Position numbers and translations under genes: made by a program
Shown: piece by piece, positions 3,475 to 52,207 of the stretch
Layout of the letters: every line of letters starts with the position of its first letter
How positions within the stretch are numbered: position 1 is the first letter of the stretch
Source: Mustelus asterias
Taxonomy: Eukaryota
Assembly (NCBI RefSeq): GCF_964213995.1
Contig: NW_027590253.1
Coordinates: 496,001-560,000, forward strand
DNA: 64,000 bases
Direction of reading: 5' to 3'
The notes under the pieces: model-generated
Told to the model about the DNA's origin: nothing
Database searches by the model: none
What the model saw: only the letters and a program-made list of their open reading frames with translations

Positions 3475-4233
3475 TCATTCGTGAACTTGTTGGTGTCTCA
3501 GCAGGGAGGATGAAACACTGAATCCCTTCCCACATTGAGAGCAAATGAATGGCCTCTCCCCTGTGTGAACTCGCTGGTGTATCTGCAGGCTGGATGAGTC
3601 AGTGAATCTCTTCCCACACTGAGGGCAGGTGAACGGCCTCTCCCCAGTGTGAACTCGCAGGTGTTTCTGCAAGTTGGATAAGTCATTGAATCCCTTCCCA
3701 CACTGAGAGCAGGCGAACGGTTTTTCCCCAGTGTGAACTCGCTGGTGTGTCCGTAGGATGGATAATCGAGTGAATCGCTCCCCACACTGAGAGCAGGTGA
3801 ACGGTTTCTCCCCAGTGTGAACTCGCTGGTGTGTCCGCAAGTTGGATGACTGAGTGAATCCCTCTCCACACTGAGAGCAGGTGAACGGTCTCTCCCCAGT
3901 ATGAACAAGCTGGTGTGTCCGCAGGTTGGATGACCGAGTGAATCCCTTCCCACACTGAGAGCAGGTGAATGGCCTCTCCCCAGTGTGAACCCGCTGGTGT
4001 GTCCGCAGGCTGGATAACTGACTGAATCTCTTCGCACACTGAGGGCAGGCGAACGGTCTCTCCCCAGTGTGAACTCGCTGGTGTCTCCGCAGGCTGGATG
4101 ACAAAGTGAATCCCTTCCCACACACCGAACAGGTGAACGGCCTCTCCCCATTGTGACTGCGTCGATGAATTTCCAGATCAGATGGAGCTTTGAATCCCTT
4201 CCCACAGTCCCCACATTTCCACGGTTTCTCCAT
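3475..4233 (-). CDS. Tandem C2H2 zinc-finger protein, 9 fingers (ZNF-A)
   Basis: ATG at 4233 (MEKPWKC...), nine CxxC-x12-HxxxH fingers with TGE(R/K)P linkers, stop at 3475; splice acceptor ttttacag near 4578; degenerate fingers upstream in the same exon. Confidence 0.88.
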
Positions 4234-10136: not shown

Positions 10137-11087
10137 ATGGAAAAACCATGGAAATGTGGGGACTGTGAAAAGTCATTCCGTTCCCCATCGGTGTTGGAAA
10201 TTCATCGACGCAGTCACACCGGGGAGAGGCCATTCACCTGCTCCAATTGTGGGAAAGGATTCACTCGGTTATCGATCTTGCTGACACACCAGCGAGTTCA
10301 CACCGGGGAGAAGCCATTCAGCTGCTCTGATTGTGGGAAGGGATTCACTCAATCATCGCACTTGCTGATACACCAGCGAGTTCACAATGGAGAGAGGCCA
10401 TTCACTTGCCCCGTGTGTGAGAAGGGATTCAGCGATTCATCCACACTGCAGACACACCAGAGAGTTCATACTGGGGAGAGGCCATATATCTGCTCCATGT
10501 GTGGTAAAGGATTTGCTCAGTCATCCAACCTGTATTCACACCAGCGAGTTCACACCGGAGAGAGGCCGTTTCCCTGCTCTGTGTGTGGGAAGGGATTCAG
10601 TAACTCCGCCAACCTGCTGAGACACCAGCAACTTCATACTGGGGAGGCTTCCTTCACCTGCTTTGAGTGTGGTAAAGGATTCAGTGATTCATCCAACCTG
10701 TTTTCGCACCAGCGAACTCACACTGGGGAGAGGCCATTCACCTGCTTTCTGTGTGGAAAGGGATTTAGCCAGGCATCCCGCCTGCAGACACACCAGCGAG
10801 TCCACACCGGGGAGAGGCCGTTCACCTGCTCAGTGTGCGGCAAGGGATTCAGTGATTCATCCAACCTGATTTCACACCAGGGAGTTCACACTGGAGAGAG
10901 GCCATTTAACTGCTTTGTGTGTCAGAAGGGATTCAGTCGATTATCTAACCTGCTGACACACCAGCGACTTCACACTGGGGGGAGACCGTTTGCCTGCAAT
11001 GAATGTGGAAAGGGATTCACACGATCATCCCACCTGCTGAGACACCAGCAAGTTCATAAGCGATTACAAACATTGGATTCTGCTTAA
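10137..11087 (+). CDS. Tandem C2H2 zinc-finger protein, 11 fingers (ZNF-B)
   Basis: 316-aa ORF starting MEKPWKC with eleven canonical fingers and TGERP-type linkers; acceptor ttttacag at 9906; aataaa near 11318. Confidence 0.9.
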
Positions 11088-19219: not shown

Positions 19220-19677
19220 AATCACTTGTGAACTCACTGGTGTTTCACCAAGTTTGCTGACTCAGTGAATCCCTTCCCAGTCAGAGCAGGTGACCAGCCT
19301 CTGCCTGGTGTGAACTCACTGGTGGGACATTAGTTCCCAAGAGCTTTTGAAGCCACGCCCACATTTAAAGGGTCTCTCCTGGGTGTGATGATGTTGTGTC
19401 TGGGCAGGCTGGATAACCGAGTAAATCCTTTCGCACACACCGAGCAGGTGAATGGTTTCTCCCCGGTGTGAACTCACTGGTGTTTCAGCAGTGTTGATGA
19501 TATTCTAAACCTCCTTGAACAGTGAGAGCAGCTGAACGGCCTCTCCCCGGTGTGAATGTGCTCGGGGATCATCAGTTCCTGAGAGCTTCTGAAGCCGGCC
19601 TCTCAGGCAGAGCATTTAAAGGGGCTCTCCTTGGAGTGAGTGGCTTTGTGTCTCAGCAGGCTGGATGAAGCAGTGAA
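19220..19677 (-). pseudogene. Decayed zinc-finger repeats downstream of the ZNF-C stop
   Basis: Finger-coding motifs (cagtgagttcacaccggggaga...ttcacctgct) continue with further stops and indels. Confidence 0.75.
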
Positions 19678-20961
19678 TCACTTCCCACACACAGAGCAGG
19701 TGAACGGCCTTTCCCCGGTGTGAACTCGCTGGTGTGTCTGCAGGTTGTATAATGTTCTAAATCTCTTTGTGCAGTGAGAGCAGCTGAACGGTCTCTCCTC
19801 AGTGTGAATGCGCTGGTGGGACACCAGATCCTGAGAGCTTTTGAATCCACTCCCACAGTCAGAGCATTTAAACGGTTTCTCATTGGTGTGAGTGGCTTTG
19901 TGTTTCTGCAGGCTGGATGACTGAGTGAATCCCTTCCCACACACAGAGCAGGTGAATGGTCTCTCCCCAGTGTGAACTCGCTGATGTTCCCACAGGCTGG
20001 ATGACCTTTTAAATCTCTTTGAGCAGTGAGAGCAGCTGAACGGTCTCTCCTCAGTGTGAATGCGCTGGTGGGACACCAGATCCTGAGAGCTTTTGAATCC
20101 GCTCCCACAGTCAGAGCATTTAAATGGTCTCTCATTGGTGTGAGTGACTTTGTGTGTGTGCAGGTTTGATGAATGAGTGAATCCCTTCCCACACACTGAG
20201 CAGGTGAACGGTCTCTCCCCGGTGTGAACTCGCTGGTGTCTCCGCAGGTCAGATGAAGTTCTAAATTTCTTTGAGCAGTGAGAACAGCTGAACGGTCTCT
20301 CCTCAGTGTGAATGCGCTGGTGGATCATCGGTTCCCCAGAGCTTTTGAAACCACTCCCACAGTCAGAGCATTTCAATGGTCTCTCATTGGTGTGAGTGAG
20401 ATTGTGTTTCAGCAGGTGGGATAACTGAGTGAATCCCTTCCCACACACAGAGCAGGTGAATGGTCTCTCCCCAGTGTGAACTCCCTGGTGTGTTTGTAAA
20501 TGGGATGACTGAGTGAATCCCTTCCCGCACACAGAGCAGGTGAATGGTCTCTCCCCAGTGTGAACTCGCTGGTGTATCTTCAGGTTGGATGAAGTTCTAA
20601 ATTTCTTTGTGCAGTGAGAGCAGGTGAACGGTCTCTCCTCAATGTGAGTGCGCTGGTGGGACACCAGTTCCCCAGAGCTTTTGAAGCCACTCCCACAGTC
20701 AGAGCATTTAAATGGTCTCTCAATGGTGTGAGTGAGATTGTGTTTCTGCAGGCTGGATAAATGAGTGAATCCCTTCCCAGAGCAGGTGAATGGCCTCTCC
20801 CCAGTGTGAACTCGTTGGTGTCTCTGCAGATTAGGTAAGTCAGTGAATCCCTCCCCAAACACAGAGCAGGTGAATGGCCTCTCCCCAGTGTGACTGCGTT
20901 GATGAATTTCCAGAAGAGATGGGAACATGAATCTCTTCCCACATTTCCATGGTTTCTCCAT
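19678..20961 (-). CDS. Tandem C2H2 zinc-finger protein (ZNF-C), truncated by a premature stop; possibly a pseudogene
   Basis: ATG at 20961 (MEKPWKC); the first three fingers lack a Cys, about 12 intact fingers follow, and the ORF ends mid-finger at CSVCGK* (GGA>TGA). Confidence 0.75.
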
Positions 20962-35684: not shown

Positions 35685-36112
35685 AGGTTTGAAGACTGAG
35701 TGAATCTCTTCCCACACACACAGCAAGTGAACGGCCTCTCTCCAGTGTGGACTCGCCGATGTTTCAGCAGATGGGATGAGGTAATGAATCCCTTCCCACA
35801 CTGGGAGCAGGTGAATGGCCTCTCCTCAGTGTGAGTTCTCTGGTGTATATGTAAGCTGTTTGACTGAGTGAATCCCTTCCCACACTGGGAGCAGGTGAAT
35901 GGTCTCTCCCTGCTGTGACTGCCCCGATGAATCTCCAGCTGGGGTGGGTAATCAAATCCCTTCCCACAGTCCCCACATTTCCACAGCTTCTCCCTGTTGT
36001 GACTGCAATTATGTTCCGAAAGCCTGGATGATTGGTTGAAGTCCTGTCCACACACAGAACACGTGTACAGGTTCTCTCCCCTAAAAATGGTGCTTTTTCC
36101 TTCCATGTTCAA
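35685..36112 (-). pseudogene. Truncated C2H2 zinc-finger gene (ZNF-D), four fingers plus a partial fifth
   Basis: [16 protein letters not shown].. WKCGDC.. FTCSQC x2, then [16 protein letters not shown] breaks into repeat sequence. Confidence 0.8.
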
Positions 36113-41429: not shown

Positions 41430-42830
41430 GTCTCGATATTGCACTCATCTGTGACCTGTCTCTGCTGATGTTAAATTAACTAATCCCTATTTCGGTTTAT
41501 ATGAAAGAAGATTTTGTCTCTGTTCACATTACACTGGACGTACTTTCTGTTTATAATAAACTAGATGCTCTCTCTGTTCATATTACACATCACCATGTCT
41601 CTGTTCATATTGAGATCGACAATGACTCTGCTTTTATTAATGTAGACCTGTCTCTGTACTAAACTGGATGCACTTGACCATGTCCATGTTCATTTTATAT
41701 TGGGCACGGACTCAGTTATTACTGCACTAGACAATGCGCAATAATGTGAAAAGTGGCTATGGGAACACGATTCTCTGCATCCTCCTACAGATACAACTCT
41801 GACGGATGGAGACAAGTCTTGGGAACTGGAAAAGAAGAAGTGATATTTGAAAGCTCATTCTACTGATGCATTGAAAATAGATATCAAACCCTGCGCAGCA
41901 TACACTGTCGATCCAATATTTTCCGTTTCAAGATCCTGCTGAATACAGATGTTTATAGCCCAGCATATTTATGCATTATATTATCTCTCTACCTCACAGA
42001 ACCGTTGAGTAATGTTCATGTAGCCATAGTTCAGACAGAGGAATACTATAGTGCAGTAATAACAGTGACCTGGTCTCGCGAATTATAGACAGAGTCAGGA
42101 TCAAATGTCATATAAACAGGGATTGGGTCTAGTGCATCATAAACTAAGTTCTGGTCAAGCGGAGTATTAACAGAGACAGGATCTATTTTAATATAAACAG
42201 AGGCCTGATGCAGTGAAATAGAAATGAGGTCGTGCCGAGTGCCTTGTAGGAAGTTAAAGGCGAAATACTGGCCTTACCAGAGACACCCACATCCCATGAA
42301 ATAAATATTTTAAAAATATGAATGACATCAACGAATACAAGAAAAACTGAGATGGTGTCGAGTGCAATTTAACCGAATGCAGTTACTTGCGCGATATAAA
42401 CTGAGACATATCGTGTCAATTACTGATACAGGCCTGAACCGATATTAACTGAGGTAGAGCTTAGCGCATTACCAGTAATTACTGATACAGAATCTGGACT
42501 GACATAAACTGAGACAGAGTCCAGTGTGTTAATGATCATTACTGATGCAGTACCTAGACTGATAAAAACTGAGACAGGATTTAGTGTGTTATTAATGACT
42601 AGAGATACGATATTTAGACTGATATAAACTCAGAAAGAGTCTAGCGCATTGGGAATAATTACTAATATGTGATCTAGACTGATAGACACTGAGATATGGA
42701 CAATGCAGCAAATTAGAATGATCACATGATGCAATAATAACAGAGGCAGGGCACGGTGTTGAGTAAACAAATACATGCACTTGTGCAGCATTAACTAAAA
42801 CAGGGTCGAGTTTATTAGATCTAATGAACC
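41430..42830. repeat. Two oppositely oriented degenerate minisatellite arrays flanking a unique core
   Basis: tgtctctgttcatattacactagac-like units at 41430-41735 versus gtctagtgcagtaataaacagagac-like units at 42040-42830; 60-bp periodicity at 42481-42720. Confidence 0.6.
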
Positions 42831-43242: not shown

Positions 43243-46199
43243 TGATTAACTGAAACACATTTCAGCACAGTCATAATTCAGAAACCATCGTGTAAACAGG
43301 CTTTGGCTTCACTTATGAACAACTGATAATGAGCCGAGTAGAGGAATAACAGAGACAGGACATGCTGTAATGAGGCTGGGACATGGCCTGTTGAAATACA
43401 AACAGACGTGGGGGCTAGTTGAACGTTCCAGAGATATGACCTGTTCAAAATCATTTAATGAGGTTTTGCTGTCACTGGTAACGTAGGATTTGTTGCCACT
43501 TCTATTTTTTCCTTTGGGAATGTGCTGGTGAGCCCTCTTCTTAAATCGTTGCATTCCATATGAGTAAGTACACATACAGTGCTGATGGGAAGGGAGTTGC
43601 AAGATTTTCATCCATTGACACTGAACAAATAGTGATATAGATCCTAGTCAAGACGGTATGGAGGTTTCATGGGCATTTGCAGGTAATTGTATTCTCCTGC
43701 ATCTGCTGCCCTTGCCATTTTAGTATCAGAGTTAATGTGTTTGAAAGTTGCTACCAAAGGATTATGTTGCTGCTATACAAGTTGTATATGGTTCACACGG
43801 CTAGAGTTGTACATCTGTGATGCAGAAAGTGAATGTTTAAAGTGGTTGGTGGGGTGTTCTTCCAGCCGCCTGCTTTTTGCTGGGTGGTTTCGAGCTTTTT
43901 GGGTGTTGCTTCAGTACCACACGCCAGGCAAGTGGAGAATATTCAATCACAATCCTGACTTTTGCCTTTATATGATGGATAGGGTTTGGGAAGTCAGGAG
44001 GTGAGTTACTCCACGCACAATTCCCAGCCTCTGACCTGTTTTTGTCGCAATATTATTGACATGGCTGTCCCAGTTCAATTTTCCATCAATGGCAATTCCC
44101 AGAATGATGATAGTGGGGTTTCAGCTGTAGTCATTCAATTAATGGCAAGCGGAGATGATTGCAATCTCTCTTACTTGAAAGGGTCATTGCCTGTCACCTC
44201 GGTGGCGTGAATGTCACATGCCACTTCACAGCCAAAGCCTGAATGTTTTCTAAGTCTTTCTTCTTACGGACACGGACTGCCTCAGTATCTGAGAAGTTGT
44301 AAATGTGCTGAACATCGTGCAATCATCAGTGAACATCCCACTTCTGAGCTTGTATTGAAGCGTGAATATTAGGCCGAGGGCACTATCCTGAGGAGTTTCT
44401 TCAGCAAATACCCTGTGACTGAGATGATTGGCTTTCAACAGCCACAGCCATCTTACTCTGTGCTCGGTTTGACTGAAGCCAGTGGAATGTTTTTTTTCCC
44501 CGGATCCCCATTGACTGCAGCTTTGCTCGGGCTTCTTGATGCCACAATCGGTCAAGTGCTGTGTTGATGTCGAGGGCCGGCACTCTCACCTCACCTCATT
44601 AAAGCAGCTATTTCCACTAGATTTGGACTAAGCTTAAATGATTTCTGGAACTGAGTGCTCCGAGTGGGACCCAAACAGAGCATCATTGAGCAGATTACTA
44701 TTATTTGTAGTTGTAGCAGTATTGATATTATTATATTATTATTATTTTTTTAGATGATCCTTCATACTTACCATTACGTTGATCGAGTGAGGACGCATTG
44801 GGCGATAATTGGTCGGGTTGGATTTGTCCTGCCTTCAGAAACAGGTCACGTCTGCCAATTTTCACACTGTTGTGTATGTGACCGTGATGTAGCTATACTT
44901 GAATAGATTGGCTAAGGCTCAGCTAGCTCCAGAGCACAAACCGTTATTATTATTGCTGAAATATTGTCAGGATCCATAATCTTTGCAGTATCCAATGCTT
45001 TCAGCACAAGGTTAGGCCACAGATCAATCATGATCATATTGCATGGCAGAGCGGGCTCCAGGGGCTGAATGGTCTACTCCTGTTCCTATCCTCAATGTTA
45101 TAGAAACATAGAAAACTGCAGCACAAAACAGGCCCTTCAGCCCCACAAGTTGTACCGAACATATCCCTATATTTTAGGCCTACCTGTAACCCTCCATCCT
45201 ATTAAGTCCCATGTACACATCCAGGAGTCTCTTAAAAGACCCTATTGAGTTTGCCTCCACCACCACTGACGGCAGCCGATTCCAGTCGCCCACCACCCTC
45301 TGTGTGAAAAACTTACCTCTAACATTTCCCCTGTACCTACCCCCCAGCACCTTAAACCTGTGTCCTCTCGTAGCATGTTGAATGAATTGACCTCCTTGGA
45401 GACTGGCATCTGTGATGTTCGGGGCATCAGGGGAAGGCAGAGATGGAACATCTTCTGCCTGAACATAGGAGCAATTGTTTCAGTCTTGTTTCTTTTCCTT
45501 TTCGTTTGAGGCTCCTGCTGCAGTTACTTGTTTAAATGTCCATCACCATTCAGGACTGCATGTGGCAGAACTGCAAAGTTAGGGTCCAGTGTAGTATTTA
45601 TTGAGGCAGTGCCTTCTTCATGTAATGTAAACCATCAAGGTGCCAATTCCATCTGCTGGCAAAATTCTGCAATTACAGTTACTGTAAATATATCGCTGTC
45701 AGGTATGATTTATGACAGTAATATACAAAGAATTCACATTCATAAATATAAGACCACATCCCCTTCTGCAGAAAGTGCCCAAATTTAAGGTGCAACGAAT
45801 TATAGATTAGATGTACATTGCTGAATAATACAGGTTAAGTTGTGTCCCGCAGGAATCTGTCTTGAGGGGGGAGGGGGGCGGGGGTATGTAGTTGAAACGA
45901 ATGGCATAGAGAGAATAACAAAGTGAATGTAAATGTGATGATAAAGGCTGAGAATGGTGCTGAGAGCGTCCATTAAGAGATTGCGATGGATAAATGGCAA
46001 AACAGAGATTGCAGAGTATGTGAATGCAACTGTTGTCCCTATTGGGATGGGGAGGATGGGTTTGGGGGAGAGATGAAGCAGGGTTGAAAACGAGATTTCA
46101 GAAGTTGAAAACTAAAAATAAGAAAATAAAGTAATAAAAATGGACGAGTATGATGAAAAGAAGAAATTAGATAAAATAAATGGAAAGGGAGTGGAGGTG

Positions 46200-47629: not shown

Positions 47630-48214
47630 TCGAGTCATGGAGCTTTACAGCGTTGAAAAAAGGCCCTTCGGCCCATCTTGTCCATGCCATCCAGGTTTTA
47701 CCACTAAGCTAGTCCCAATTGCCCGCATTTGGCCCATATCCCTCTATACGCATCTTACCCATGGAAGTGTCTAAATGCTTTTTAAAAGTAAAAATTGTCC
47801 CCGCCTCCACTACTACCTCTGGCTGATCTTTCCAGACACTCACCAGCCTCTGAGTGAGAAAAATGCACTCTGGACTATTTTGCAGTTTGAAAAACAACCC
47901 TTTCCAACCACCCCCTGTCTTCTCTCATCAAGCCAATTTTGCATCCAATTGGCTACTTCGCCGTGGATCCCGTGAGATTGAACCTTATGCAGCAATGCAC
48001 CATGTGGTACCATGTTAAAGTCCATGTAGACAACATCCACTGCACTGTCCTCATCTACCATCTTGGTTACTCCTTCAAAAAATTCAATCAATTTCGTGAG
48101 ATATGATTTTCCACTCACAAAGCCATGGTAACTGTCCCTTATTAGTCCGTGCTTTCTAAATGCCTGTAGATCCTGTCTCTCAGAATACCTTCTAACAGTT
48201 TACTCACTGCAGAC
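47630..48214 (-). mobile_element. CR1 fragments with an internal deletion
   Basis: LTKLIEFFEGVTKMVDE..AVDVVYMDF and 3'-end VVEAGTIFTFKKHLD. Confidence 0.8.
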
Positions 48215-48227
48215 CTCACCATTTTAA

Positions 48228-48387
48228 GGTTTTTGTACAGCTCTCTCTGTGTTCTGTATCACTATGTCTGTGATTTTCACCATGTTCATTTTTTGTACAG
48301 CTCTTTCTGTGTTCTGTATCACTGTGTCTGTAATACTCACCATGTCCAGGTTTTTGTACAGCTCTCTCCATGTTCTGTATCACTGTG
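48228..48387 (-). promoter_or_regulatory. Three tandem 23-bp-spacer recombination signal sequences
   Basis: RSS1 CACAGTG(48387-81)-23-ACAAAAACC(48357-49); RSS2 CACAGTG(48326-20)-23-ACAAAAAAT; RSS3 CATAGTG(48266-60)-23-ACAAAAACC. Confidence 0.92.
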
Positions 48388-48693
48388 CTGTGCTCTGACT
48401 CAGTGCACAGTAATACACAGCGGAATCGCTCAGTTCCAGTTTGGAGATCTTTAACCAGCTGATTTTCTCGGCAGAATCGATAGAAGCAGAAATTCTCCCC
48501 CCGGCAGCATTTTCTTTATTCTCCTCTCCTGAAGTGAGTGTCTGAAGCAGGTATTTCAGAGCCTGCCCTGGGGGCTGACTGTACCAGTGTACTGTGTACT
48601 GACAGAGACCTGAATATTCACAGCTTAAAGCAACCGTGTCACCAGCAGCAGAGGTTTGGAGAGGCGGATTTTTCGACACCAGGGAACTAGAAT
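48388..48693 (-). CDS. Leaderless supporting TCR-delta V segment of NAR-TCR
   Basis: Acceptor ctttttttatcctccag| at 48693 (phase 1); (D)SSSLVSKNPP..LSCEYSGLCQYTVHWY..DSAVYYCALS; canonical C-W-C plus an extra CDR1 Cys; followed by a perfect 23-RSS. Confidence 0.88.
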
Positions 48694-50888
48694 CTGGAGG
48701 ATAAAAAAAGAAACAGCGTTTTCTTCTGTGGTTCAGTCACTGTTTACCAGGGGAATGTGTCAATTGCGGGAGTAGCTCAGTTTTATTCGGTGTTATTATC
48801 ACTTTAAATCTGATGGAACTGTATTCACTGTTATTATTATTGTAAACCAGTGGAAAATGAGGTTTTCTTGACACAACAAGATCCAACGGTCTGGAATGCA
48901 ATGTCGGAATAGATGGTGGGAGCTGAATCAACAGTGACAAACACACGGGAATAGTCAAGCGCCGGAACAGGAATAAAACAGGGTTATGGGGAAAATTCAT
49001 GACTAAGGGGAAGAACTGCATTTCACTTATAAAGGGCTGCATCTACTCGAGGGGCCGAATGTCACCCTTTTGCACTCTATGATTCAATGATGTATGTTAC
49101 ATTTCACTTTCTATTTCCCTTCCTAAGAGACAAACACGAGGGAACATTTTATTATCAGTGAGGCAATCCGTTCCAAGTGACTAACCCAGCTGCGTTACGT
49201 CGTAGCGCACAGCAAGATCCAACAGGGAATGACTGTCATCCATCAGCTCCAATGGGAATGGAATGATGTTGAACATCGGTGCTCAAATGTCATTCATTTA
49301 TATCTGTTTAACACTTCCCGGGAATCTCTGTTTGTTCATCTATTTGATTTTCTTCTGCTATCGAACTATCAGGAACATTTTTTCTCCTTTTCTCTTTACT
49401 TAGAACTATTTACAGTCAGTTTTATTTGGTTTCAACATTTATTTTGCGCTGTTTGGGTTCGTTGCAATCGTGGAAAGTTCTCCCAAAGTCTCTCAGTTGT
49501 CAGTTGGGTTTATTCCGTTCAGTTTCTGCAGTGGTTTTACAGTTATTCACTGGGAACTGCCTCTTCTGGCTCTCTGACAAGTTCAATTCTTTTTTTGCTC
49601 TTTAACTGATTCTCTTCTGCGGTCTCTGGGCGGAATTTTCTCTAAATTTTACATTGTATAGAAACGGCAGAAGAACAGGCAATTCGGCCTAACTCACTGA
49701 TGTCTGCATAGAAACACCCGACCAGCCTCACCCTTCAGAAATCTAATTGGCCATTTCTATCCAGCTCACTCTGTCGGTCTATTCTGTTCTCCCTTCAGTA
49801 TTTTCGAGTCTTCCCATAAATGTACCACTCGCCTCTGCTCCAAACATTCAATGTGACAGCGAGATCCACATTCTGGCTCTCCCTTTTTGAATTGATTCGG
49901 ATTGATGTATTTATTTTCTTCTGTAAATGACAACTGTCAGGAAACAAAGGTAGTTTAACTAATCTCTTCAGTGTTTTTGGACATTAGAAATAAAGTATAG
50001 GTTTAAGTCAGTTTAGTTTAATATTTCAGTATAAAAAGGGTAAAACTCCAGTTATATTAATTTCAAACAAACGTGTTTTCGTGTGTGGGGGATTTAGTTT
50101 CATTTTAAATTATGCCTCTTTTGACGGTGGAAAATGAGGAAAGTGATTGGTTATATGGAGGATGTTTAGAGGAATGTCAGGTACAATTTCACTAATTTCA
50201 GTAACTGATTTCTCTATTGAAAAATACAATCTGGAACTAAACAGAGTCTCTAATGTCTGAAGTCCGTTGTCTCTTTTATTCTATTTGTCTCCCGGGACAG
50301 TTATTGGATGAACTGCTGCGGTTAAATGAACTGTCCGCGGTGGCATTGATCTCATTCAACCGGTAGCTTCTTCATATTACACGGCAGGGACTTCAGTCTA
50401 CTGCCCAGGAGAGAGCTCTGCGATCCCAGTGCCGGGCTGTTCGAGACAGGCAGATCTCCTTCGGTCACAATTAACACCGAAGGTGGATTCCAGAGTGCCG
50501 ATAATTTGTTATAAACTATCAGGATTGTGAAAGCCCTTGATATGGATGTTAACCCCGATGTGCCCGTTAAACTAATAATGACCCAAATACTGTCAACCCT
50601 CACATCACAGCCCATCCACCCCCCACCCCTCCACTTCCATCCCCACAACCACCACTATCCCTACAGCACTGACCGCCTTCTGCATCAGGTCTCACATTCG
50701 CTTTCCCCAGGGCTGACCTGGATCGACTCCTAAATCACGTCCTGCTCCCAAATCAAAATCTGTAACGGATCTGTAAACAGATCCTTATCCGTATCCATTG
50801 GACTGAAACGATACAGATCACGATAATAAAATGACGGTGAACGTTAAACGAGACATTTTGTAACACGGCGGGGTTTGGAGTCACTTAC

Positions 50889-50940
50889 CGGCTGTGACAG
50901 TCACCACCGTCCCTGAGCCATCGGCATCATACCATTTGTA
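50889..50940 (-). CDS. NAR-TCR J segment
   Basis: YKWYDADGSGTVVTVTA then G|GTAAGT donor (phase 1, in frame with the 48693 acceptor); RSS heptamer 50941-47, 22-bp spacer, nonamer ACAAGAACT 50970-78. Confidence 0.9.
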
Positions 50941-51317
50941 CACTGTGATACCGATCTCAGTCTCCCCGTACAAGAACTACCGACTACTCAACTTGACGGG
51001 AAATCATCACAGTCATTTGGAAGTTCCCAATTATTCGGGGGATTTAAATCAATAAATATTATTCAATGTTTTGAAGTCTCTGTCGGTTCAAACTGTTCTT
51101 TTTGAGGCCCCGCGTTCTCAGTAAATATCCCCAGGGAGGAGATAGTCGCTTCATATTAGCTGAGAAAAATATTAAAGAAAGATGTGAGTGATGGAAAGTG
51201 CAATGTAATTAATCCAGATTGCAGCGCTAATAACATCAATCCATAATTCTCTCTCTGGGCCCTGCGAATGTATATTGTAATTGTGCACAGGTATTTGCTC
51301 AGCTTCTTTTTACTGTG

Positions 51318-51334
51318 ACTCTCCTAACCATTTA
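51318..51334 (-). other. NAR-TCR D segment (17 bp) flanked by two 12-RSS
   Basis: TAAATGGTTAGGAGAGT; 5' RSS CACAGTG(51335-41)-12-ATCAAAACC; 3' RSS CACAGTA(51317-11)-12-GCAAATACC; only one stop-free forward frame (KWLGE). Confidence 0.85.
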
Positions 51335-51726
51335 CACAGTGTTATAATTTAGCATCAAAACCCCAGATACTGTGTGAGATGTAGGGACATTAATTAAACA
51401 GCGGGGACTGCGGTTCCCAGTTCCAGCTGAGAGACGATGATCCCATCTTTTGTTTGGGTTTGTAACTGGGATCAGTCATTTCCATTCTTCATTCATCAAC
51501 ACCTAACCCGGGAAAGATGTCAGCTTCCGCACACACTCCTTGTTTAAAACACTCAGAATGTTAACGGTAATAATCAAATCCTCATTATAAACGTGACTGT
51601 GGGATTGACGGTGTGCGATGGAACTGTGCGGGTTTCAGGGAAGATTAACTCCGCTTTTTCATTTGTTTATGTGAAAATCTTCAGTGAGAGTTTTAGTATG
51701 ATGGGAAGCCGAGGCCCATCACTGTG

Positions 51727-52015
51727 CCGTCTCCTTTGTAATGAGCTTTACAGAAATAGGTGGCGGTGTCTTCAACTCTCACATCCCGAATTTCCAACGA
51801 AAATTTCTTTTCTGCTTTATTCACCGACACAACAAATCTCCCTCCGCCGGAGATCCACTCCCGCTCCGTTCCGGTCTGTGTTTGTTTGAAGAATTCCGCC
51901 CTCTCCAAAGCACGAGCATAGAATCCACCATAGAAAACACAGGTGATGGTGAGGGACTGACATTCCTTCCTGGTCACCGCTGCCGGGCTCTGTGTCACTG
52001 ACTGACTGAAAGATC
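51727..52015 (-). CDS. IgNAR-like NAR-TCR V exon
   Basis: Acceptor ttccag| at 52015; SFSQSVTQSPAAVTRKECQSLTITC...GGRF...EDTATYFCKAHYKGD; extra FR1 Cys, shortened CDR2 region; RSS CACAGTG(51726-20)-22-ACTAAAACT(51697-89). Confidence 0.9.
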
Positions 52016-52164
52016 CTGGAAATTAAACACAAGAGAGTTTAAAGGATCATCAGAGCTGAACCACACAACGGGGCTAAAACCCCAGACAGTGTCTGTAATT
52101 GGGATGGACTGGGGCAGCTTTATATTCAATCCACACAATGTAGTTTAGTGTGATCAGTACCCAC

Positions 52165-52207
52165 TGGGTAAATAGACACACAGGCTGAAAACGAGAAGAA
52201 TTCCCAT
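52165..52207 (-). CDS. Leader (signal peptide) exon of NAR-TCR V
   Basis: ATG at 52207, MGILLVFSLCVYLP then A|GTGGGT phase-1 donor, in frame with the V exon across a 149-bp intron. Confidence 0.85.

Follow-up and report, generated by a model that had tools for sequence, protein, structure and literature searches.

The window analysed here is a stretch of 64,000 nt of the Mustelus asterias contig NW_027590253.1, and it holds a NAR-TCR cassette whose parts all lie on the minus strand (Table 1). The NAR-TCR reportedly goes back to Criscitiello et al. in 2006. Passages of PMC1845163, PMC12227049 and PMC3457774 describe it as a doubly rearranging TCR-delta chain of cartilaginous fish, and we matched the window segments to the NAR-TCR V and supporting V features given in passages of PMC1845163. 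The N-terminal V is of the NAR type, has a leader and an A-B loop Cys, lacks the Trp of WYRK, and is accompanied by its own D and J with RSSs (22-RSS V, 12/12 D, 22-RSS J). It is followed by a V with a Cys in CDR1, for which inspection revealed no leader, and the predicted model P0001 of a 99% paralog splices J to this V. These features and the Pfam V-set match bear out the first-pass annotation, which had called the segment a supporting V (SV). The best protein matches of the window genes are annotated Mustelus asterias models.

Table 1. Parts of the NAR-TCR cassette in the window, in window coordinates
Feature	Positions	Strand	Remarks
Leader exon of NAR-type N-terminal V	52165..52207	-	ATG at 52207, GT donor at 52164; matches start of predicted protein P0001
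NAR-TCR V exon, open; A-B loop Cys (RKEC), without Trp of WYRK	51727..52015	-	Pfam V-set E 1e-8
NAR V RSS, single, 22-bp spacer	51689..51726	-	Downstream second copy absent
NAR D, 17 nt (51318-51334), 12-RSS on both sides	51290..51362	-	3' heptamer CACAGTA (paralog C110: CACAGTG)
NAR J (50889-50940), 22-spacer RSS (50941-50978), GT donor	50889..50978	-	
Supporting V (SV) exon, splice acceptor at 48694, CDR1 Cys (GLCQY), open frame	48388..48693	-	Pfam V-set E 8e-14; 99% to P0001
RSS1, perfect 23-RSS	48349..48387	-	Holds in-frame TGA (48380-48382); unit used in 4/4 paralog SV joins
Linker 1, 22 bp	48327..48348	-	Part of repeat unit
RSS2	48288..48326	-	Perfect heptamer; nonamer with 2 mismatches (positions 8-9)
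Linker 2, 21 bp	48267..48287	-	22 bp in paralogs
RSS3	48228..48266	-	CAT heptamer (CAC lost), perfect nonamer
Linker 3, truncated	48215..48227	-	Adjoins high-copy repeat
99.2% match to complete cluster C110	45866..61626	-	Past 45866 the window leaves the cluster

The SV is followed by three 23-RSS units in tandem, as had been proposed from a first reading of the sequence. Tandem Repeats Finder, run on the window, reports a period of 60, 2.9 copies and 85% matches at 48215-48391. RSS1 is CACAGTG-23-ACAAAAACC, a perfect signal that occurs once in the window, and any match to it was found in 0 of 100 shuffles. The nonamer of RSS2 is ACAAAAAAT and the heptamer of RSS3 is CATAGTG, so the motifs previously assigned to the three copies agree with the sequence. 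RSS1 and RSS2 have the CAC heptamer, 23-bp spacer and near-consensus nonamer of a functional 23-RSS, and RSS3 fails at CAC. The CAC heptamer is required for RSS activity, and its loss predicts a large loss of activity (passages of PMC2193808). The open frame of the SV runs on into a TGA inside RSS1, which confirms that a join at RSS2 would retain both RSS1 and an in-frame stop. The third unit is truncated at ~48214 by a very high-copy repeat; depth in run X1 exceeds 100,000 at 48150-48212, compared to ~100-1,600 over the array and the V. The window contains another 60-bp tandem repeat at 42478-42694 (3.6 copies, 69% matches), which is unrelated to the RSS unit.

The contigs of all four sequencing runs that we compared behaved as DNA. 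Short-read contigs from two other runs cross from RSS3 to RSS2, and one of them reaches into RSS1. Because these contigs cross its units, the RSS repeat is not a long-read artefact. Its 60-bp middle unit and the nonamer ending in ...AAT are peculiar to the window copy; the five closest paralogs have an extra A (61 bp), which is also present in the best-matching contig of each of three runs. The A missing from unit 2 of the window is thus a private variant or a homopolymer miscall. This one base is what can be said for the reading that the array is an assembly artefact or a private mutation of the window allele. For the array as a whole that reading is refuted, and we give it next to no credence, since the units differ mutually (85%) and recur both in 49 paralogous copies and in short-read contigs.

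The window match to cluster C110 ends at 45866, and a search with a C1-type exon found no C exon on the window's contig, C221. The 19 matches of this search, all scored, lie elsewhere (C71 with three, C90, C96, C106, C110, C111, C115, C119, C123, C138, C154, C173, C181, C401, C436, C850 and C3311). These TCR-delta-like C exon copies are 90-100% identical, and some may be haplotype duplicates. C110, C123 and C436 continue past the SV into D (12-RSS 5', 23-RSS 3'), 3-5 J and a C1-type exon, and each of the three stretches that we read completely is a self-contained NARV-D-J-SV-(V)-D-J(3-5)-C cluster. The window cassette is probably a duplicate that has been truncated, although cassettes do also join one another. 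The paralog C1-type exon matches Pfam with E 7e-4 and 20.2 bits, under the Pfam cut-off of 21, and a PDB search with the C exon found no matches other than generic Ig C domains. The delta label of the D-J-C segments is inferred from the D segment and the context; the automatic NCBI name is alpha-like. Between SV and D, C110 has a V-like exon without a detected RSS, and also an IgH-like V that carries one 23-RSS (L054:794-1189 and L054:4805-5266). The heptamers of the window NAR J (50941-50947) and NAR D (51311-51317) are each one base off the consensus heptamers of C110, a hint of early decay of the window copy. Where the paralog has D-J-C, the window has 84-bp repeats (3481-4156, 10214-11056, 19362-20893 and 35701-35968) that, by their period and sequence, look like C2H2 zinc-finger arrays.

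The repeated RSS is a general property of this V class. Our set comprises at least 61 SV-like copies from 50 loci and is incomplete, since the genome search gave 73 candidates, of which 40 were scored. Two to nine units are present in 49 of the 61 copies, which places the array well beyond the window allele and answers the question, raised at first reading, of whether paralogous SVs share it. The number of units per copy is 0 in 6, 1 in 6, 2 in 12, 3 in 15, 4 in 5, 5 in 12, 6 in 3 and 9 in 2; the SV copies together hold 191 units, with a period of 61 bp in 125 of 136 cases. Each of the 31 intact, unrearranged SVs carries two units or more, never a single one, and has an in-frame stop past the V end. 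The six single-unit copies are all broken V genes. Four of them have a common insertion, and C153, the only insertion copy read across, has five further units past it. Genome-wide, a perfect RSS followed by a perfect heptamer 8-38 bp on was found 45 times, each time in an SV unit, with no match in a reversed control. Among 23 V ends with a perfect RSS, a downstream copy is present in 7/7 SVs and in 0/16 other Vs, and no second copy lies behind any of 13 distinct NAR V signals. These counts uphold the expectation that V segments normally carry a single RSS.

As in a minisatellite (VNTR), the units lie head to tail and their number varies among near-identical copies; paralogs of one family have 3, 4, 4, 4, 5, 5 and 6. 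The pattern of turnover is one in which single units and dimers have been duplicated. Units of the same array are no more alike than units of different arrays (0.833 for 122 pairs within arrays, 0.834 for 1708 pairs between), which is not the excess within arrays expected of a minisatellite. In 18 cases two SVs lie tail to tail, so that their arrays face each other across 245-3080 bp (on C88, C90, C108, C115, C119, C138, C153, C157, C160, C437, C444, C447, C786, C87, C2349 and C71), and 17 of these pairs consist of one intact and one broken V.

The assembly also records which unit has been used. Each of the six SV copies that lack units has a RAG join at its V end. Four independent SV joins, three V-D joins and one inversion, are present, and all four used RSS1. 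One V-D junction is held in common by C436:213.7k, C96:1455.1k and C119:553.7k, with J and C downstream. Because these copies have a common junction despite ~2% divergence elsewhere, the join is germline, which shows that RAG has been active in the germ line of M. asterias. At C850:36.3k and C401:0.9k, different SVs from other cassettes are joined, in the germ line or somatically, to D-J that is 100% identical to the cluster at C71:12.25 Mb over ~955 bp; V-to-D joining preceded D-to-J joining, and one of the two has a possible P nucleotide. The join in C401 used RSS1 although in its family RSS1 deviates from the consensus and RSS2 is mostly perfect. The fourth is a 5.8-kb inversion (C122:393165-398929) between the 3' 12-RSS of a NAR D and the RSS1 of an SV. 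Its coding joint and precise signal joint (C122:398922) are both present, with a four-unit array intact past the latter, so the two units of a cassette that rearrange can also recombine with each other.

RAG footprints are common in the locus. On C71, a broken ordinary V is joined to D (11023776) and the 5' 12-RSS of a D and the 23-RSS of a different V meet in a precise signal joint (14376803). Five NAR V copies (L071-L073, L078 and L081) have a 12-spacer RSS and lack a D match from V to J, which hints that V and D were already joined there.

We found no use of the distal units. No D segment lies at any of 29 distinct ends of 55 arrays, a genome-wide pattern search returned no linker-to-D joint, and the one SV signal joint in the genome is at RSS1. 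Distal-unit RAG joints number zero among only four joins in the assembly, and joins fixed in the germ line may have been selected. The first-pass annotation had offered the extra copies as decoys or as a second chance for re-rearrangement, and neither role is favoured by these joins.

We scored an RSS as usable when it had CAC and a nonamer with at most two mismatches and a central AA. RSS1 is usable in 31/31 intact SVs compared to 12/24 pseudogenes, and distal units are usable in 52/79 cases in intact SVs compared to 33/57 in pseudogenes; in family-level Fisher tests neither difference is significant (p 0.08 for RSS1, p 0.14 for distal units). RSS2 looks functional in 23 of the 31 intact SVs. 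Last units are usually degenerate, and distal copies often lose CAC or the nonamer. By parsimony the inner units have 2.1 changes per site in the heptamer, 2.5 in the spacer, 3.4 in the nonamer and 2.8 in the linker. Heptamer and nonamer showed no conservation in these units beyond that of spacer and linker (p 0.53 and 0.23), the test being a weak one that gave no signal for RSS1 either (ratios 0.86 and 0.89). Among unique units, the inner nonamer has a mismatch rate of 0.149, compared to 0.073 for the spacer and 0.087 for the linker.

Rates measured against the V itself point to conservation of the unit. On the V tree of the eight intact families, four-fold sites have 1.16 changes per site (19 sites), compared to 0.42 for the unit-1 spacer and linker (p 0.002) and 0.60 for the unit-2 heptamer, spacer and linker (p 0.02); with 14 families the p values are 0.0002 and 0.0006. 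Four-fold sites number only 19 and 10 in these tests. The rate for heptamer, spacer and linker is ~35-50% of that for four-fold sites, and the unit-2 nonamer is indistinguishable from neutral (p 0.70 and 0.27). The unit-1 spacer and linker also lie below the first and second codon positions of V (0.42 vs 0.62), and in 27 of 28 family pairs the unit-1 linker has a higher identity than the four-fold sites. Either weak constraint on the unit or conversion between loci could account for this conservation.

NAR V was discarded as a rate control, since its 23 pairs of 8 sequences included one mis-called spacer and too little divergence, and was kept for the single-copy count. We rejected a conserved splice donor in the linker (ATG|GTGAG), because neighbouring sites are kept as well as its GT and the translated orectolobiform linkers lack it. 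Helical phasing was rejected by arithmetic, 61 bp being ~5.8 turns and hence out of phase. A search of the unit by eye for transcription-factor motifs (CTCF, p53, E-box, YY1, SMAD) gave nothing convincing.

Evidence from other species consists of predicted proteins that read past the V end, rather than DNA. Twelve of 25 protein tails of at least 8 aa match the translation of a six-unit array better than all 300 shuffles do, and the 13 without an array match are mostly spliced models. Seven tails keep the register for 84-300 nt and thereby enter a second unit (four from Hemiscyllium ocellatum, and those of Rhincodon typus, Stegostoma tigrinum and one further protein), and those of Pristis pectinata (69 nt) and Pristiophorus japonicus (63 nt) just reach unit 2. 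These read-through gene models place the 61-bp register in the epaulette, whale and zebra sharks and, more weakly, in a sawshark and a sawfish. Models from Cetorhinus, Carcharodon, Heterodontus and Scyliorhinus mostly end at the in-frame TGA and are uninformative on the array. The check in other sharks that had been proposed therefore has a positive outcome in orectolobiform species, and, as judged from predicted proteins, the array appears to be kept in at least two shark orders. The codon at the unit-2 heptamer is Q instead of H in 6/6 orectolobiform proteins that reach unit 2, indicating that CAC has been lost in all six.

The array is real, family-wide and old. The reading we prefer, to which we give an even chance, is that the window array is a member of a 61-bp SV tandem repeat that contains a whole 23-RSS, that RAG likely cuts the first copy, and that the rest are likely passengers not kept as signals. 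Several observations sit uneasily with passengers. The unit-1 spacer and linker and the unit-2 heptamer, spacer and linker are more conserved than neutral drift predicts, the equal likeness of units within and between arrays is unlike plain within-array turnover, and a single unit is never seen in an intact, unrearranged SV. It is possible, although we would not bet on it, that the array is instead a selected cis-element which binds RAG or another factor, or keeps RSS1 accessible, and so helps a leaderless SV to compete for D with the cut still made at RSS1. These readings draw on RAG scanning, on accessibility linked to promoters and on the age of the elasmobranch splits. A helper of this kind fits the restriction of tandem signals to SVs, the presence of at least two units in every intact SV, the apparent persistence in two orders and the slow change of heptamer, spacer and linker. 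It also fits the layout of the clusters, since C110 and C123 have a single-RSS V between SV and D, and the SV is several kb from the nearest V promoter while ordinary Vs are nearer D. The nonamer is RAG1's main anchor, and a RAG-loading role predicts conserved nonamers, but within the distal units it is the nonamer that is conserved least, and it alone in unit 2 cannot be told apart from neutral. Moreover, no transcription-factor motif stood out by eye, copy number is free to vary from 2 to 9, and conversion between loci could yield equal conservation within one genome.

Quite improbable, in our judgement, is a role in which the distal RSSs are cut first, as a trap for RAG scanning from D or as a decoy, and the dead join keeps RSS1 for joining to J, either as a retry or as a D-less short CDR3 like that of platypus TCR-mu. 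The geometry allows this, because clusters have 3-5 J, most with a recognisable 12-RSS, RSS2 looks functional in most intact SVs, and a stop follows every intact V end. However, with two to three usable RSSs used equally, four joins without a distal one would be expected with a chance of ~1/24 or less (a rough figure, with parents assumed), linker-to-D joints are absent genome-wide, and the unit-2 CAC is lost in the orectolobiform proteins. A distal join is also never productive, so it adds no productive attempt and only spends D. Even more improbable is that the distal RSSs are mildly harmful decoys selected to weaken, with the unit kept for another reason or by conversion. The inner nonamer mismatch rate of twice that of spacer or linker and the usual degeneracy of last units point this way, but the excess falls to 1.29-fold (p 0.23) once independent changes are counted, and several intact families hold 3-5 near-perfect copies.

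Under the preferred reading of passenger copies behind a used RSS1, the array would have arisen once in an early elasmobranch, and its units would have been renewed through unequal exchange or slippage, with a probable share of conversion between loci, as suggested by the SV pairs that lie tail to tail with arrays facing. The last unit is often degenerate, and a collapse to one copy would then damage RSS1, which may be part of why such collapse is rare. The sequence before a first unit is the V end, in most cases ...CACAG or ...CATAG, and that before a distal unit is mostly ...TACAGA; in several families the last linker leads into TTCTTG. The difference between the V end and the sequence preceding distal units places the unit edge at the heptamer border, where RAG cuts. 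By a rough estimate, chance alone would put ~1 of 23 possible edges at that border. A four-base ACAG match, one base off register, offers ordinary slippage as an alternative to an origin by RAG. RAG is active in germ cells on shark Ig genes (PMC2193156). We consider somewhat unlikely, taken as a whole, the account in which the array was made by germline RAG and then retained from early elasmobranchs onward as a multi-RSS enhancer for the join of a promoterless SV to D, in a many-cluster NAR-TCR family with some germline-joined SVs that is convergent with mammalian TCR-mu.

One RSS per V segment is a near-rule, and a lineage-wide array specific to one V class is a natural test of how RAG chooses among adjacent identical signals. 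If the array is helpful, it explains the recombination of a leaderless V; if it is inert, adjacent perfect RSSs can be ignored, and a mechanism for this is then needed. We found no report of tandem RSSs behind a V in the literature searched, and the primary NAR-TCR papers or their supplements may mention them. The repeated clusters with their own C, the germline V-D joins and the RAG inversions bear on the evolution of shark TCR loci and on the parallel with TCR-mu.

Among known systems, the NAR-TCR is matched in its leader and NAR-type V, D and J followed by a leaderless SV with a CDR1 Cys, that is, in two V(D)J units before a TCR C exon; the repeated RSSs behind the SV go unmentioned in passages of PMC1845163, PMC12227049 and PMC3457774. 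RSS1 is the exact consensus of the canonical V 23-RSS in passages of PMC2193808, but here it heads a head-to-tail array with a fixed 22-bp linker instead of standing singly. The same source describes cryptic RSSs in mouse gamma-satellite, which likewise are RSS-like sites within a tandem repeat; those lie outside antigen-receptor loci, whereas the shark ones are full consensus and directly behind a V gene. The SV joins resemble the RAG-joined germline shark Ig genes of PMC2193156 in their trimmed ends, precise signal joints and possible P nucleotide. TCR alpha/delta is described as a translocon in four other elasmobranchs (passages of PMC12227049), whereas M. asterias has 19 C exons and its three fully read stretches are clusters. 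Mammalian TCR-mu is also a three-domain TCR in repeated clusters with their own C (passages of PMC7615758 and PMC3457774), of independent origin and with no RSS array in those passages. In TCR-mu the SV is germline-joined (marsupials) or D-less (platypus), and the shark paralogous clusters include germline V-D-joined SVs in three copies (C436, C96 and C119), although the shark joining is partial (V-D) and the J-SV intron context is kept. As far as the assembly allows, the multiple shark clusters with their own C thus appear to be organised like TCR-mu rather than as one translocon.
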